This document shows, in pieces, positions 12,510 to 59,115 of a DNA stretch of 64,000 nucleotides. The DNA lies in NCBI GenBank assembly GCA_964514585.1, contig CAZETU010000002.1, positions 32,001 to 96,000 of the forward strand, written 5' to 3'. Source of the DNA: Candidatus Woesearchaeota archaeon (GTDB taxonomy: Archaea > Nanobdellota > Nanobdellia > Pacearchaeales > GW2011-AR1). Position 1 is the first letter of the stretch. Each line of letters begins with the position of its first letter. The notes beneath the pieces are model-generated. The model was not told the DNA's origin and ran no database searches. It was given only the letters and a program-made list of their open reading frames with translations. The position numbers and the translations under genes were made by a program.

Positions 12510-13036
12510 TGGGGTTTGATCTTGAGAAACATAATGCTTTGACTAAGGATGATAAGTCGCATGAGCAAAAATGGGATGAGAAGATTAAGGGGCTTTGTGA
12601 TAAGATAAATTCTAGTGAAGATTATTTTACGACGTCGTCTTGTTCGGGTCGGGTTACTGTGGTTCGGGCTTCAGTTGAGAAGGTTAAAGATGCTTTTGTG
12701 TTTAAGTCGCATGACAAGGCTTGTGTTTCGGACGTTGAGGGGATTTTAGATGATGGACTTTATTTTCGTCAGGAGCCTTGTGCTTTGCATGTTGCTTGTC
12801 GAACTTTGGAAGATGCTCAGAAATTTTTGAATCTGGCTCGGAATTTGGGATGGAAGAAGTCTGGGATTATTTCGTCTGGGAAACGGTTTGTTATTGAGTT
12901 GTTTTCGACTGAGATGATTGTTGTGCCGTTGATGAAAAATATGGATAGAGAATTTTTGGAGTTGGTTGTTAGGGATGCTAATTTGAAATTGGAAAGGACT
13001 TGGGGGAAGATTTTGAGGTTGGAGGAGGAGGCTTGA
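12509..13036 (+). CDS. tyw3: tRNA wyosine methyltransferase Tyw3/Taw3
   Basis: KINSSEDYFTTSSCSGRV; LHVACRTLEDA; GWKKSGI. Confidence 0.85.
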   Translation: MGFDLEKHNALTKDDKSHEQKWDEKIKGLCDKINSSEDYFTTSSCSGRVTVVRASVEKVKDAFVFKSHDKACVSDVEGILDDGLYFRQEPCALHVACRTLEDAQKFLNLARNLGWKKSGIISSGKRFVIELFSTEMIVVPLMKNMDREFLELVVRDANLKLERTWGKILRLEEEA

Positions 13037-13435: not shown

Positions 13436-13480
13436 TTTATCTCAACCTAATTGTTTCTAGGTTTTTTGGGACGATTGTCT
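13436..13480 (-). pseudogene. 45-bp copy of the aCPSF1 3' end
   Basis: 42/45 identical to 14176-14220; the three differences are synonymous (TIVPKNLETIRLR*). Confidence 0.9.
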
Positions 13481-13485
13481 GAGAG

Positions 13486-13531
13486 GCTAATTTGAAATTG
13501 GAGAGGATTCGGAGGAAGGTTTTGAGGTTGG
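13486..13531 (+). pseudogene. 46-bp copy of the tyw3 3' region
   Basis: 41/46 identical to 12977-13022; all differences are transitions. Confidence 0.85.
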
Positions 13532-18525: not shown

Positions 18526-18569
18526 GGCTTGAGGGTTAGGATTATAAAGTTATTTTTGTTTGTTATGTT

Positions 18570-18689
18570 ATGAGAAATGTATTAGTTCAAAATATTCGAA
18601 AGATTAAGAAGGCTGTGCCTGCGATTGAGAATAAGGTTAAGGTTGGTTTTTTGAAGGACGGGGTTAGTAATTTAGAAAGAAGTCGTTGA
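18570..18689 (+). pseudogene. Truncated duplicate of the KH gene 5' end with its promoter
   Basis: 18570-18668 matches 19436-19540 except two synonymous changes and an in-frame 6-bp deletion; attataaa lies 29 bp upstream of both ATGs. Confidence 0.9.
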
Positions 18690-19329: not shown

Positions 19330-19435
19330 TAATTATTCTTGGGTAGTTTATTTATAAAGTTTTCTATTTGTTATTATTTAAAAGTTACAAAATGTTTTTA
19401 ATTAAAATTATAAACTTGTTTTGTTATATTTTATT

Positions 19436-19966
19436 ATGAGAAATGTATTAGTTCAAAATATTAGAAAGATTAAGAAGGCTGTGCCTGCGATTGAGAATAA
19501 GGTTAAGGTTAAGGTTGGTTTTTTGAAGGATGGGGTTAGTGTTAAGGGGAGTGAGTTGAATGAGTATTTGGTTGAGCAGGTTTTGCGGGCGGTTGATTTT
19601 GGGTTTTATGTTGATGATGCGTTGTTGTTGACGGATGATGGTTTTGTTTTGGAGTTTATTGAGGTTAAGGAGCATACTCATCGGAAGAATTTGAAGGATG
19701 TTCGGGCTAGACTTATTGGGACGAGTGGGAAGGCTAGGAAGACGATTGAGAATTTGACGGGGTCGGTGATCGTGATTCATGATAATACCGTGGGGGTTAT
19801 AGTTGACAGTATTCATTTGGACGCGGTTGTTCAGGCTATTGAGAGTTTGATTCAGGGGGCGAAGCATGGGAATGTTTTTGCTTATTTGGAGAAACAGAAT
19901 GTTTCTAGAAGGAAATTTGACGAGGATGATTTGGGTTTGAAAGAAGGGGTTGTGAAGAACAGTTAG
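19436..19966 (+). CDS. KH-domain RNA-binding protein (Dim2/Pno1-like)
   Basis: RAVDFGF; RARLIGTSGKARKTIENLTG; G.KHGNVFAYLEK. Confidence 0.85.
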   Translation: MRNVLVQNIRKIKKAVPAIENKVKVKVGFLKDGVSVKGSELNEYLVEQVLRAVDFGFYVDDALLLTDDGFVLEFIEVKEHTHRKNLKDVRARLIGTSGKARKTIENLTGSVIVIHDNTVGVIVDSIHLDAVVQAIESLIQGAKHGNVFAYLEKQNVSRRKFDEDDLGLKEGVVKNS

Positions 19967-45283: not shown

Positions 45284-45313
45284 TTTTATAATGTTTGGGG
45301 ATTTGTTTTAGTT

Positions 45314-45691
45314 ATGGATGTATCACGCACAGGTGTACCCTCTTTAGGAGATTCTGAAAATTTCGATACTAAACGGGCATGTGTGTTTTGTAAGATTGTG
45401 AAAGGTGAGATTCCTTGTGAGAAAGTTTTGGAGCGGGATAATTTTATTGTGATAAAGGATGTTAACCCTAAAGTTGAGGGGCATTTGTTGGTTATTCCGA
45501 ATGAGCATTATAAGAATTTTTTAGACTTACCTTCTGAGTTGTATGAGGATTTATTGAAGACTGTTAAGGATGTTTTGAATGAGAAAGGGATTGAGGATTT
45601 TAATTTAGCTGTCGTGGGAGAATTAGTTCCCCATTTTCACTTGCATGTCTTGCCTAGGCGCGAGGGAGACGGGTTCAGTTTGAATTGCTGA
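45314..45691 (+). CDS. HIT family protein with a 20-aa N-terminal insertion
   Basis: CVFCKIV, GHLLVIP, HFHLHV. Confidence 0.9.
   Translation: MDVSRTGVPSLGDSENFDTKRACVFCKIVKGEIPCEKVLERDNFIVIKDVNPKVEGHLLVIPNEHYKNFLDLPSELYEDLLKTVKDVLNEKGIEDFNLAVVGELVPHFHLHVLPRREGDGFSLNC
45324..45379 (+). repeat. Intragenic ~60-bp element, copy 1
   Basis: 47/57 aligned positions identical to 57680-57736. Confidence 0.85.
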
Positions 45692-45964: not shown

Positions 45965-47353
45965 TTATTCTTTTTTCTTTTCTTTTGGAAGATCTAGTCC
46001 GATGTGTACGTCTTTCAATTGTTGTTTTGAAAGTGAACTTGGTGCATCGAGCATTAGGTCTTTTGCTTCTTTGTTTTTAGGGAATGCGATTGTTTCTCTG
46101 ATTGATTCTGCTCCGAGTACGATTTGGACAAGTCGGTCTAGACCCCATGCGATTCCGCCGTGAGGAGGTGCTCCGAATTTTAGGGCGTCAAGTAGGAAGC
46201 CGAATTTTTCTCTTTGTTCTTCTGGGTTGATTCCTAAAACTTCGAAAACTTTTGCTTGGATTTCTTCTTCGTGGATTCTGATTGAACCGCCACCGATTTC
46301 AGTTCCGTTTAAGACGATGTCGTATGCGATTGATTTTGCTGTCTCTGGGTCTTTGTTGAACGATTCCATTTCTGGATGTGTGAATGGGTGGTGTGTTGCA
46401 ATCATTTTTCCTTTTCCTTCGGATTTATCGAATGCAGGGAAATCTACAACCCAGCAGAATGCAAATTCTTTTGGATCGTCTTTATTTTTTCTTAAGTCTG
46501 GTCGGTCGATTCCGTATTTTTTCATTGACTCATCGTAGGAGATTCTTTGGAATGGGGTTTGTATGTCGACGTTTAAGATTTCTTTCCAGATTTTTTTTAG
46601 TAATTTTTCTGTTATTGCGATTATGTCGTCTTGTGTTACGAATGACATTTCTAGGTCTAGTTGTGTGAATTCTGGTTGTCGGTCTGACCTAAGGTCTTCA
46701 TCTCTCATACATTTTGCAATTTGAAAATATTTTTCGAAACCTGCGACCATTAAGAGTTGTTTGAATAATTGTGGGGATTGTGGAAGTGCGAAGAATTTTC
46801 CTGGTTGAGTTCTTGAGGGGACGACATAATCTCGTGCTCCTTCTGGAGTTGATTTTGCTAGAATTGGAGTTTCAAATTCGCTGAAACCTTCTTCGTGAAG
46901 AGTGTCTCTGATTACTTTGATAATTTTACTTCTTATGATTAGGTTCTTTTGCATTTCTGGTCTTCGTAGGTCAAGGTATCTGTATTTTAATCTGATTTCT
47001 TCGTTTGTATCTTGGTTATCTAAGTCGAAAGGCAGAGCTGGGCATTTGTTGTAAACTTCTAGTTCTTCGATTTTTATTTCTACGCCGCCCGCTGGAGAAT
47101 TTTTGTTTTCTGTTCCTTTGGGTCGTTCGTTTACTTGCCCTTTGACTCTTATACAAGATTCTTTAGTTAGGGATTTTGCTGTTTCGAAATTTTTTTCGTT
47201 TTTTGCTGTGACAACTGTTTGGACTGTTCCAGTTATATCTCGGATTTCTAAGAATGTGATTTTCCCATGTTCTCTGATTGTGTCGATCCATCCTGCTATC
47301 TCTACGTTTTTTCCGATTTTTTCTGGCAGGTTTTTGATCATTATTCTTTGCAT
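45965..47353 (-). CDS. aspS: Bacterial-type aspartyl-tRNA synthetase lacking the GAD domain, probably non-discriminating
   Basis: TPEGARDY, ALPQSPQLFKQLLM, RDEDLRSDRQPEFTQLD, HHPFT, GAPPHGG; only 462 aa; REHG motif. Confidence 0.92.
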   Translation of the reverse strand: MQRIMIKNLPEKIGKNVEIAGWIDTIREHGKITFLEIRDITGTVQTVVTAKNEKNFETAKSLTKESCIRVKGQVNERPKGTENKNSPAGGVEIKIEELEVYNKCPALPFDLDNQDTNEEIRLKYRYLDLRRPEMQKNLIIRSKIIKVIRDTLHEEGFSEFETPILAKSTPEGARDYVVPSRTQPGKFFALPQSPQLFKQLLMVAGFEKYFQIAKCMRDEDLRSDRQPEFTQLDLEMSFVTQDDIIAITEKLLKKIWKEILNVDIQTPFQRISYDESMKKYGIDRPDLRKNKDDPKEFAFCWVVDFPAFDKSEGKGKMIATHHPFTHPEMESFNKDPETAKSIAYDIVLNGTEIGGGSIRIHEEEIQAKVFEVLGINPEEQREKFGFLLDALKFGAPPHGGIAWGLDRLVQIVLGAESIRETIAFPKNKEAKDLMLDAPSSLSKQQLKDVHIGLDLPKEKKKE

Positions 47354-55267: not shown

Positions 55268-56527
55268 TTATTTTAGGTTTGAACTAAATTCATTAGAAAT
55301 GTTTTCTAGCATTTTTTCTTTGGGGTTCCATTTTTTATGTCCTAGAATCCAGCCTAATTTTACGAATGCTGTTTCTGGTAGCATGTCACTCAAGAAAATG
55401 ATTCCTGTTTTTTGTAAGTCTCTGCCTGCTGAGTATATGTTTGGGTTTAATCGGCCGTAAATTGTTTGGGGGGTTGCGCAGACTGTTATTCCGTTGTCGA
55501 CTAGCTTTTTTATTTTTGGGAGCCAATTGAATTTTGCGTCAGTTGCTGGGACTTGTCCGATTCCTGTTACTTCTAGAATTATTCCTTTGTATCCTTGTTG
55601 TTCGTAGAATTCTAAGATTGAGGGGTCGGCTCCTGGGTATACTTGGATTAGTGCGACTTTGTCTGAGTATATTGTATCTAGTTTTGTTTTGTTGGAGTTT
55701 TTTGCATTGAAAGTTTTTAAGATTTCTATTTTTTCTTTTGTTATTTCTGCTAAAGGTTCTGAATTAATTATTTTGAAGGCGTCTCTTTTTGATGTGTGCA
55801 TTTTTCTGACTTTTGTTCCTGGCATTGCTAGGCAAATTTCATCGTCTGAGTTTTTGTGTCCGATAAGGGCTACTTCTGCAATGTCTGAGGTTGCGTATCT
55901 TGCTGCACATATTAAGTTTAGGGCTGCGTCGGTTGAACCTCGGTCGATTGATCTTTGGGAGTATGTTAGGGCGACGGGCTTGTTTAGGTCTTTTAGGAAG
56001 AACGATAATGCGCTGCTTGTGTAGTGTAAGAAGTCGGTTCCGTGAGTTATGATTATGCCATCGATTTTGTCGTCGTTGAGTAAGGGTTCGCAAGTTTCGG
56101 CTATTTTTTTCCAGTCTAAGAAAGACATATTTTCTGACCATTTCATGAATGGTTTTTTTATTTTTACAATGTTGGCTATTTCTTTTATTTCTGGAGCGAT
56201 TGTTAAAATTTCTTCGGCGTCTGTTGAAATTACTCCGCCTGTTTTTGAGTCTAGTCTTGAAGAGATTGTTCCGCCTGTTATTATCATTGCGATGTTTTTT
56301 AATTTTGGATTATTCTTTTGTGAGGTTTTTTCTTTTTCTTGAGATGTTGCTTTTATTATTATTTTGGCGTCAATAATTTCTCGTTCTCGGATTCCTATGT
56401 TATAGCCTGATTTTAGTTTTAGGAGAATTACTTCTGGGTCGTGGGATTCTAGGGCGTGGCCGTGCCAGGTTTTTTCTTTTGTTTGGAGGGAAACTTCGTC
56501 GCCTGGGTTGAAATGTTTTTCTTTCAT
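55268..56527 (-). CDS. gatD: Glu-tRNA(Gln) amidotransferase subunit D
   Basis: LKLKSGYNIG, TGGTISSR, HGTD, SQRSIDRGSTD. Confidence 0.95.
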   Translation of the reverse strand: MKEKHFNPGDEVSLQTKEKTWHGHALESHDPEVILLKLKSGYNIGIREREIIDAKIIIKATSQEKEKTSQKNNPKLKNIAMIITGGTISSRLDSKTGGVISTDAEEILTIAPEIKEIANIVKIKKPFMKWSENMSFLDWKKIAETCEPLLNDDKIDGIIITHGTDFLHYTSSALSFFLKDLNKPVALTYSQRSIDRGSTDAALNLICAARYATSDIAEVALIGHKNSDDEICLAMPGTKVRKMHTSKRDAFKIINSEPLAEITKEKIEILKTFNAKNSNKTKLDTIYSDKVALIQVYPGADPSILEFYEQQGYKGIILEVTGIGQVPATDAKFNWLPKIKKLVDNGITVCATPQTIYGRLNPNIYSAGRDLQKTGIIFLSDMLPETAFVKLGWILGHKKWNPKEKMLENISNEFSSNLK

Positions 56528-57585: not shown

Positions 57586-57672
57586 CTCCTTATTATTAAG
57601 ATGCGTTTAGAATATTTAAGTTTTTGGAAGAGTCTTCAATAACTTTTTATATGTGATTTTCTAGGATTGATT

Positions 57673-59115
57673 ATGGCAACACGCAAGGGTGTACTCTCTT
57701 TAGGAGATTCTTCGAATCTCGATGTTGAAACGGGCAAAGCGTTTCCGGTGAAGATAGGGTTGGAGATTCATGGTTATTTGGATACTCGGGAGAAGCTGTT
57801 TTGTATGTGTCGGACTGATAGCTTGGAGAGTGATGTGAATTCTAATGTTTGTCCGATTTGTACTGGTCAGCCTGGGAGTAAGCCTATGGCGGCGAATGAG
57901 GCGGCTGTTGATAAGTTGATTGAGATTGCTCTTGTTCTTGGGTCTAAGATTAATTTTAAGGAATGGGTTTGGCAGAGGAAGCATTATAATTGGGCGGATA
58001 ATCCTAAGGGGTATCAGACGACGATTTCGGGGGCGCATGCTTCGCCTTGTGCTGTTGGAGGAAAGTTTAAGGGGATAAATATTACTGAGGCACATTTGGA
58101 AGAGGATCCGGCGCAGTGGAATCCGGCGACGGGGAAGATTGATTATAATAGGTCGGGGTTGCCGTTGATTGAGATTGTGACGGAGCCTGAGTTTTCTAAT
58201 TCGGAGCAGGTTGTTGAGTGGTTGAAGGCTTTGGTTTTGAGCCTTAGTTATATTAAGGCTACTAGGAAGAATGCGGGGATAAAGGTTGATGTGAATGTTT
58301 CGACTTATGGGGAGAGGGTTGAGATGAAGAATTTGAATTCCTTAGAGAAGATTCGGAAGGCGATAGAGTACGAGATTGTTCGGCAGATTGAGGCGCATGA
58401 TGCTGGGGAGGTTCAGAAGAGGGATACTTTGGCGTTTGATGAGAAGTTGGGGAAGACGATAAAGATGAGGAGTAAGGAAGGGGCGGCTGATTATCGGTTT
58501 ATTAGTGATCCTGATTTGCCGGTGATTCGGATTGATAAGAAAAGGGTTAATGAGATTAAGGCTCGGCTTCCTGAGATGCCTGATGTTAAGTTGGATAGGT
58601 TGTTGAAGAAATATAATGTTGATAAGAAGGATGCGGATGTTTTGACGAAGAATTTGGAACTTGTGGAATTTTTTGAGGAATTGGTTAATAATGGAGTGGA
58701 CGTTAAGACTGGTCTTCCTTGGGTGACGGTTGAGTTGTTGCGGGTTTTGAATTATAATAAGAAGACTTTGGAGGATGCGGATGTTGAGATACAGCCGGTT
58801 CATTTGGCGGAGTTGATTAAGGCGGTTGTTGAGGGGAAGATTACGAAGTTGAAGGGGAAGCAGGTGATGAATGATTTTGTGCCGAAGAGTTTTTCCTTAA
58901 GTGAACATAAGGATGAGATTTCTAGTATTGATGAATCGGCTGTTGAGAATTTGTGTCAGCAGGTTATTGATGAGAATGCGCATGTTGTTGATGAGTATCG
59001 AGGTGGGAAGGATGCGAGTTTAAATTTTTTGATTGGGCAGGTTATGAGGTTGAGTGAACGAAGGGCGGATTTTCGAACTGCGGGGGATTGTTTGAAGAGG
59101 TTGATTAATGGTTGA
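57673..59115 (+). CDS. gatB: Asp/Glu-tRNA amidotransferase subunit B with N-terminal insertion
   Basis: KIGLEIH, KLFC, CPICTGQPG, IDYNRSGLPLIEIVTEP, RVEMKNLNS, DYRF. Confidence 0.95.
   Translation: MATRKGVLSLGDSSNLDVETGKAFPVKIGLEIHGYLDTREKLFCMCRTDSLESDVNSNVCPICTGQPGSKPMAANEAAVDKLIEIALVLGSKINFKEWVWQRKHYNWADNPKGYQTTISGAHASPCAVGGKFKGINITEAHLEEDPAQWNPATGKIDYNRSGLPLIEIVTEPEFSNSEQVVEWLKALVLSLSYIKATRKNAGIKVDVNVSTYGERVEMKNLNSLEKIRKAIEYEIVRQIEAHDAGEVQKRDTLAFDEKLGKTIKMRSKEGAADYRFISDPDLPVIRIDKKRVNEIKARLPEMPDVKLDRLLKKYNVDKKDADVLTKNLELVEFFEELVNNGVDVKTGLPWVTVELLRVLNYNKKTLEDADVEIQPVHLAELIKAVVEGKITKLKGKQVMNDFVPKSFSLSEHKDEISSIDESAVENLCQQVIDENAHVVDEYRGGKDASLNFLIGQVMRLSERRADFRTAGDCLKRLING
57680..57736 (+). repeat. 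Intragenic ~60-bp element, copy 2
   Basis: Matches 45324-45379; contains the hairpin gagattc-ttc-gaatctc. Confidence 0.85.

Follow-up and report, generated by a model that had tools for sequence, protein, structure and literature searches.

A short hairpin-bearing DNA element read in frame within unrelated genes of a DPANN archaeon

The DNA analyzed here (64,000 nucleotides in full, hereafter the window) corresponds to C2:32001-96000 of the source genome, an archaeal assembly of 1.04 Mb in 18 contigs that was searched as a whole. Two genes in the window, one encoding a HIT-family protein and the other GatB, each carry a copy of a short element directly 3' of the start codon (Table 1). This repeat had originally been described as a unit of ~60 bp at the N-termini of these two proteins; the element was confirmed, Pfam corroborated the identity of both hosts, and the size was revised to a best fit of 57 nt. 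Alignment of 45324-45379 with 57680-57736 reproduced the reported identity of 47 of 57 positions, with one gap, and the exact 16-mer common to both copies is CTCTTTAGGAGATTCT. Both copies use one and the same reading frame (SRTGVPSLGDSENFD and TRKGVLSLGDSSNLD) and retain the stem of the central hairpin, and excision of 45320-45379 does yield MDCVFCKIVKG, which agrees with the start of HIT orthologues. When a 24-nt core pattern was searched with up to three mismatches, the only matches in the window were the two copies, and none were obtained in 100 shuffles. Other direct repeats in the window (18536-18644 with 19402-19510, and 12953-13022 with 13462-13531; 70-109 nt, 80-90% identity) are unrelated to the element.

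Table 1. Element copies in the window with their host genes and associated features, and the host of a third copy. Locations are window positions unless a locus and contig are named.
Feature	Location	Strand	Description
TATA-like box, HIT	45284..45291	+	~26 nt 5' of the ATG; putative leaderless-type promoter
HIT-family gene, host of copy 1	45314..45691	+	Pfam HIT, E 3e-17, residues 30-117
Element copy 1	45323..45379	+	57 nt, 19 codons; after codon 3 of the HIT gene; R1 73 bits, E 1.5e-19
5' hairpin (H1), copy 1	45324..45335	+	CAC / GTG arms flanking GCACAG; from folding, with compensatory changes in the equivalent helix of the family
Central hairpin, copy 1	45348..45364	+	GAGATT, loop CTGAA, AATTTC; a single G-T wobble
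TATA-like box, GatB	57644..57652	+	~25 nt 5' of the ATG; putative promoter
GatB gene, host of copy 2	57673..59115	+	Pfam GatB_N, E 6e-72, from residue 26; also GatB_Yqey
Element copy 2	57679..57735	+	57 nt, 19 codons; after codon 2 of GatB; R1 81 bits
5' hairpin (H1), copy 2	57679..57692	+	ACAC / GTGT
Central hairpin, copy 2	57704..57720	+	GAGATTC, loop TTC, GAATCTC
DnaE-type polymerase gene, host of copy 3	L031:852-4061 = G000 C1:87851-91060	-	PHP, NTPase, finger and HHH domains; element within the HHH_6 region

Translation of the element can be judged in the HIT gene. Cys23, which lies 3' of the element, is conserved without exception in 22 orthologues, and the stretch between 45314 and its codon is free of in-frame ATG, GTG and TTG. 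The sole in-frame start 5' of this residue is thus the ATG ahead of the element, which means that translation has to run through the element. Initiation 3' of the element, named in the original prediction as the observation that would count against it, is therefore contradicted for HIT; for GatB, judged from sequence alone, it may occur at an in-frame GTG (Val26), and the spacing of the TATA-like box favors the upstream ATG. Orthologues without the element show the same ATG-to-box spacing in both genes, and those of GatB carry ATATAAAAAG at this position, so that the putative promoters of HIT and GatB fit leaderless transcripts. In the AlphaFold model of the HIT protein, the core has pLDDT values of 93-98 and the element-encoded residues 1-20 have values of 56-63, which fits a predicted disordered tail. 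The same protein is missing five residues of the NNGxxAGQ loop kept by 21 of 21 aligned orthologues, and the Q of AGQ is replaced by E; its function may be relaxed or altered.

A genome-wide BLAST search, as had been proposed, recovered a third copy on contig C1, located in frame at about residue 833 of the 1070-residue DnaE-type polymerase. Covariance models were prepared for the GGAGATTC subfamily, to which the window copies belong (R1), and for the main subfamily (R2). The latter identified a fourth copy in the source genome, from another subfamily, close to the C-terminus of an ABC ATPase. The host of the third copy is a bacterial-type DNA polymerase III alpha encoded in an archaeal genome. 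Within the genus, R2 (E<=1e-3) detected ~90 copies in 25 of 49 genomes, with 0-14 copies per genome and about half of the genomes having none. Hosts confirmed with Pfam are HIT, GatB, DnaE, ABC ATPase, Kae1 (two sites), ABCE1 (two sites), both the alpha and beta subunits of PheRS, ArgRS, RtcB, UvrD-type helicases, HerA, SNF2 and a GTPase.

Orthologues were also aligned for empty sites, and most of those of GatB and all of those examined for HIT proved to be without the insert. For HIT this applies to 21 of 21 aligned orthologues, which begin M-[DE]-[DE]-C-[IV]-F-C-K-I. Sixteen GatB orthologues from the same genus begin M-x-(E)-K-A-F-P-[VI]-K-I-G-L-E without an insert, and the source genome (57 nt) and G018 (60 nt) carry one at the same site; the GatB gene of L018 (G022:C10) was left unscored, having a run of ~100 N exactly across the insertion site. 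Most of the genus is likewise without the element at ProRS. At the GatB site of G011 (L010, G011:C18), a 39-nt short form is present with MVAPNGLSLKEGN ahead of KAFP, suggesting gain or loss of the central hairpin in situ. One further HIT copy, in G043, lies in a gene that is 39-40% identical to the window HIT gene and is its best match in that genome, and the 3' end of this copy is likewise 1 nt shorter; judging from these sequences, the two copies are likely one shared old insertion. The original prediction of an in-frame, peptide-donating repeat in a DPANN archaeon, comparable to Rickettsia palindromic elements (RPEs), thus gained support from further copies (four in the genome, ~90 in the genus), from empty orthologous sites and from internal in-frame copies in essential genes. 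The shared 5' regulatory RNA that had been offered beside it is a poor fit with copies lying deep within the genes for DnaE, Kae1, ABCE1 and aminoacyl-tRNA synthetases.

The consensus of the family is R-CACGTAATAGTG-T-A-CCC-TCTAAA-[hairpin]-TTCATC-GGG-CAAG, an element of 57-71 nt in which a 5' hairpin (ACAC..GTGT) is followed by a closing helix of invariant sequence (CCC...GGG) around a central hairpin. The single-stranded segments TCTAAA and TTCATC are conserved; the sequence of the central hairpin is free, and its pairing is always kept. When this structure was scored on 23 copies, 92.6% of cells were paired and two-sided changes were found in 9 of 14 pairs, a number as high being reached in none of 500 shuffles. 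The covariation involves all seven pairs of the central hairpin and two of the four pairs of the 5' hairpin, with no change in the CCC/GGG helix. GAATCTC is read in two frames across copies, giving DSSNLDVETGK in one and DSDESPSKTGK in the other, and the conservation, to judge from the aligned copies, is at the level of the nucleotides and not of the peptide. The peptide tag suggested earlier is consequently a poor fit, because the 3' half of the element occurs in two different frames while its DNA is conserved. Comparison of orthologous copies with their flanks gave a mixed result: the PheRS alpha copies of G041 and G043 are 100% identical outside the hairpins, against 63-69% in their flanks, and in a 219-aa protein conservation is lower in the element than in the flanks. 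GatB, for which flank identities looked underestimated, was left out of this comparison. In six loci, no Rfam 15 family matched the element at E<=5. A tRNA fragment, a C/D or H/ACA guide and a K-turn were rejected by eye, the defining boxes or G-A pairs being missing, and solo central-hairpin modules were rejected as well, as the weak partial R1 matches look like chance AT-rich hairpins.

The length of the element varies with its context. In nearly all copies within genes, the ACCC and GGGC anchors are separated by a distance of 0 mod 3; in-gene copies have total lengths of 62, 65, 68 or 71 nt and share the open frame (T/A)-R-x-(S/G)-V-P-S ... S-S-G-K. In intergenic and ProRS-type copies the spacing is 1 or 2 mod 3, and intergenic (G047) and gene-start copies have other lengths and contain stop codons. 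In at least five genomes the element lies just 5' of the ProRS coding sequence, and there its 3' end (CATCGGGCAAG -> CATGGGCAAG) provides the ATG of the native MGKK start.

Among 151 genomes drawn from the order, full-length copies were found in this genus only. Five sister genera contain a form of 41-50 nt without the central hairpin, consisting of the hairpins GCACC..GGTGT and CCCTC..GAGGG, and this form too is located in frame in the genes for LeuRS, a ribosomal stalk protein and other proteins. In 45 genomes from other families, the search gave no copies. Since the short form of the sister genera has no central hairpin, the long form looks, at the sequence level, as if a hairpin had been nested into the second loop of that short form.

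The orientation of the element is tied to both the host gene and the composition of the DNA strand. Of 58 unique copies, 43 lie in sense orientation in a host ORF of protein-like composition, and no credible antisense host was found among the 58. Strand asymmetry is extreme: GC skew is ~0.3-0.4 across entire contigs, at ~+/-0.3-0.37 in the source genome, with T exceeding A on the G-rich strand, and holds across genes on the opposite strand, so that the coding-strand skew of AspRS (window 45965-47353) is -0.12 and that of GatD (55268-56527) is -0.22. Roughly 33% of genes are on the C-rich strand, both in the source genome and on the 394-kb contig C3 of G041. When the G-rich strand was defined by GC skew, 56 of 58 loci were assigned to it, including nine of nine copies on the 394-kb contig of G041; 42 of 43 host genes are encoded on this strand (coding-strand GC skew > 0.17, median 0.47). 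The bias has a binomial P of ~2e-6, or 2e-4 for 30 independent sites, with host strands called from 3-kb loci by a skew threshold and some copies shared by descent. Such skew is usually read as a sign that it is the G+T-rich strand that becomes exposed as lagging-strand template. The single-strand 'peel and paste' transposition of IS200/IS605 elements targets the lagging-strand template (PMC5027513, PMC6006769), and the combination of sense orientation with the G-rich strand suggests insertion into a single strand at the replication fork. Under strand-specific insertion, the missing antisense copies in genes on the C-rich strand would need additional selection, and such selection against antisense copies is only partly explained. 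Two of the three antisense frames of the element contain stops; the third is open and encodes a more hydrophobic peptide.

No transposase linked to the element was found. The Y1 transposase domain (PF01797) was detected in ten of the 49 genomes, eight of which carry the element; 17 genomes with the element gave no match, among them G041 (12 copies) and the copy-rich G055 and G050; these assemblies are 69-92% complete. An origin from resident IS200-type elements was rejected, as their ends are unlike those of the element, and so was a reverse transcriptase as the mobilizer, PF00078 being present in three of five copy-rich genomes and not found in G041 and G047. In the source genome itself, two copies of an IS200-type Y1 transposase (C5:31193-31552 and C5:59638-59997) each contain one in-frame TGA and may be pseudogenes or carry a recoded stop. 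The flanks of 58 copies contain neither a target motif nor a general target-site duplication. The base 5' of CACG is a purine only, and positions further upstream are variable; some start-codon copies have an ATG-containing direct repeat (ATGAAA in L110, ATGGGCA at the ProRS gene of G009). Tandem dimers at L086 (G050:C12), L174 (G050:C9) and L079:2400-2532 (G047:C15) share the junction TCATCG-GTC-GCACG, and each repeats its own local hairpin sequence. This junction may reflect the true ends of the element or a circle junction. Two intergenic copies of G047 (L079:1419-1602 and L109:1432-1616) are identical over 68 nt and lie within a 190-bp repeat of 82% identity, which has a conserved 3' extension, CCGAGTGT..GAGCGA..AGCGGG, and may be a composite element. 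Apart from this repeat around two G047 copies, no longer element with the same ends was found.

Taken together, these data are best explained by a small, selfish, non-autonomous mobile DNA element that inserts strand-specifically into single-stranded DNA at the replication fork and is translated with its host as a loop or tail, a reading to which we assign a probability of roughly 0.7. Insertion would probably take place in the lagging-strand template, with the hairpins and their conserved flanks serving as recognition signals as in IS200/IS605 'peel and paste'. Once inserted, the element would be transcribed and translated with its host to give a disordered, hydrophilic segment of 19-23 residues, as a loop or an N-terminal tail, and selection would leave only those insertions that yield an open-frame peptide. 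A broader scenario can be put forward only tentatively. The elements might form a lineage of hairpin mini-transposons of DPANN archaea that enters the lagging-strand template in single-stranded form, by means of an enzyme other than a recognizable transposase, possibly a host replication or repair protein. This lineage might remodel essential proteins with loops (aminoacyl-tRNA synthetases, DnaE, Kae1, ABCE1 and RtcB) and rebuild gene starts by donating an ATG, and its long form might have arisen when a second hairpin was nested into a 40-nt two-hairpin ancestor.

Several features of the element could also be accounted for by a cis-acting RNA motif that benefits the host, such as a protein-binding or pausing hairpin or a signal for mRNA stability or localization, with the peptide as a by-product. 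The hairpins covary, TCTAAA/TTCATC and the loop of H1 are strongly conserved, the two PheRS alpha copies are far more similar in their non-hairpin parts than in their flanks, and only the sense orientation is seen. We nonetheless regard this as unlikely, given the patchy occurrence of the element (about half of the genus without it, and host-gene orthologues mostly empty), its variable copy number, its random-looking positions in unrelated genes, the intergenic location of some copies and the missing Rfam match. Moreover, restriction to the G-rich strand is predicted by DNA-strand-specific insertion and not by a role at the RNA level alone. Archaeal mRNA introns and mobile tRNA introns exist, and a small, structured, sense-only sequence within essential genes could in principle be removed as a bulge-helix-bulge intron by the tRNA splicing endonuclease or skipped by a translational bypass ('hop'). 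Folds and the constraint on frame and length led us to reject both, and removal or skipping is accordingly rated as very improbable: in-gene copies are open and multiples of three and intergenic ones are not, although a spliced or bypassed sequence needs neither property; the boundaries, ~60 nt apart, are not brought into a bulge-helix-bulge by any helix, and the flanks consist of unrelated host sequence; and there is neither a stop codon nor a matched pair of take-off and landing codons.

The remaining alternatives concern the peptide. For the window copies, the element could be a 5' leader, translation beginning downstream and no peptide being donated. GatB lends itself to this, as the GTG of Val26 lies four codons past the element, Pfam GatB_N begins exactly there and distant GatB orthologues begin M-x-K-I-G-L-E, and in ProRS the element does lie upstream of the working ATG, which its 3' end supplies. 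This is improbable in view of the HIT gene, which offers no in-frame start between the element and the invariant Cys23, of TATA-like boxes placed 25-26 nt ahead of the upstream ATGs as in empty orthologues, and of GatB copies of 57 and 60 nt that are both in frame in two species. The peptide could also itself be the selected unit, spread between genes by recombination and serving, for example, as a short linear motif in modification, docking or turnover, and the 5' half indeed encodes a recurrent (T/A)R-x-(S/G)-V-P-S-K in almost all in-gene copies. We give this little credence, as the frame of the 3' half differs across copies, the hairpin-encoded residues vary freely, conservation extends to synonymous positions and untranslated intergenic copies, and the orientation is tied to a DNA strand.

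If the element is mobile DNA, even the most reduced archaeal genomes would tolerate, and keep receiving, selfish DNA within essential genes of translation and replication. Such in-gene elements could be a source of innovation in protein loops, and they can mislead gene callers and alignments. The strand bias offers a testable mechanistic lead in organisms that combine extreme GC skew with a replication hardly studied so far. The presence or absence of a copy is a precise marker of the history of strains and species in an uncultured group, and the covariance models R1 and R2 can be used to annotate the copies. Should the mini-transposon scenario hold, essential proteins would be systematically remodeled by added loops and gene starts rebuilt by a donated ATG. 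The size and limits of the family, its covarying structure, its short and long modular forms, the donation of a start codon to ProRS and the tie to the G-rich strand are new here.

Full-text literature searches returned no description of such in-frame elements in archaea, and the closest comparisons are with systems known from elsewhere. Like elements derived from IS200/IS605 that are associated with palindromes, and like REP/RAYT systems, the element has hairpins flanked by conserved bases instead of terminal inverted repeats, no target-site duplication and an orientation fixed to one DNA strand, here that of the GC skew (PMC5027513, PMC6006769, PMC3733652). It differs from the IS200/IS605 type in having no conserved 5' target tetra- or pentanucleotide and in ends unlike those of IS200-type copies in the same genus, and from REPs, which are extragenic, in being mainly within genes. 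With classical prokaryotic MITEs it shares short length, non-autonomy, multiple copies and variable copy number (PMC10969869). Unlike these, it is without terminal inverted repeats, as RCACG... and ...GGGCAAG are not reverse complements and its inverted repeats are internal; consistent target-site duplications are missing as well, as is a parent insertion sequence whose ends match. Archaeal bulge-helix-bulge introns are set apart by a boundary-joining helix of 4 bp with 3-nt bulges, which appears neither in the folds nor in the consensus structure. Yeast mitochondria have tiny hairpins, the mobile bypass elements ('byps') and GC clusters, that likewise invade coding sequences solely in sense orientation. 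The ribosome skips byps, for which neither an open frame nor a length divisible by three is required, whereas the element stays open and in frame.

The strongest resemblance is to RPEs, bacterial elements of ~100-150 bp (Ogata et al. 2000, summarized in PMC10969869). RPEs and the element have in common that they are palindromic repeats that have inserted in frame into housekeeping genes unrelated to one another, that they encode a conserved and tolerated peptide, that they have no transposase of their own and that they are patchy among related genomes (PMC10969869). The element is smaller, at 57-71 nt (41-50 nt in sister genera), with two or three hairpins in a modular design; it is strictly sense, uses a single frame, is confined to the G-rich DNA strand and in some copies donates the start codon. 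Its host is archaeal, the genome having TATA-box promoters, Kae1, ABCE1, RtcB and GatD. The element therefore behaves like an RPE and is not a member of that group, from which its size and host set it apart.
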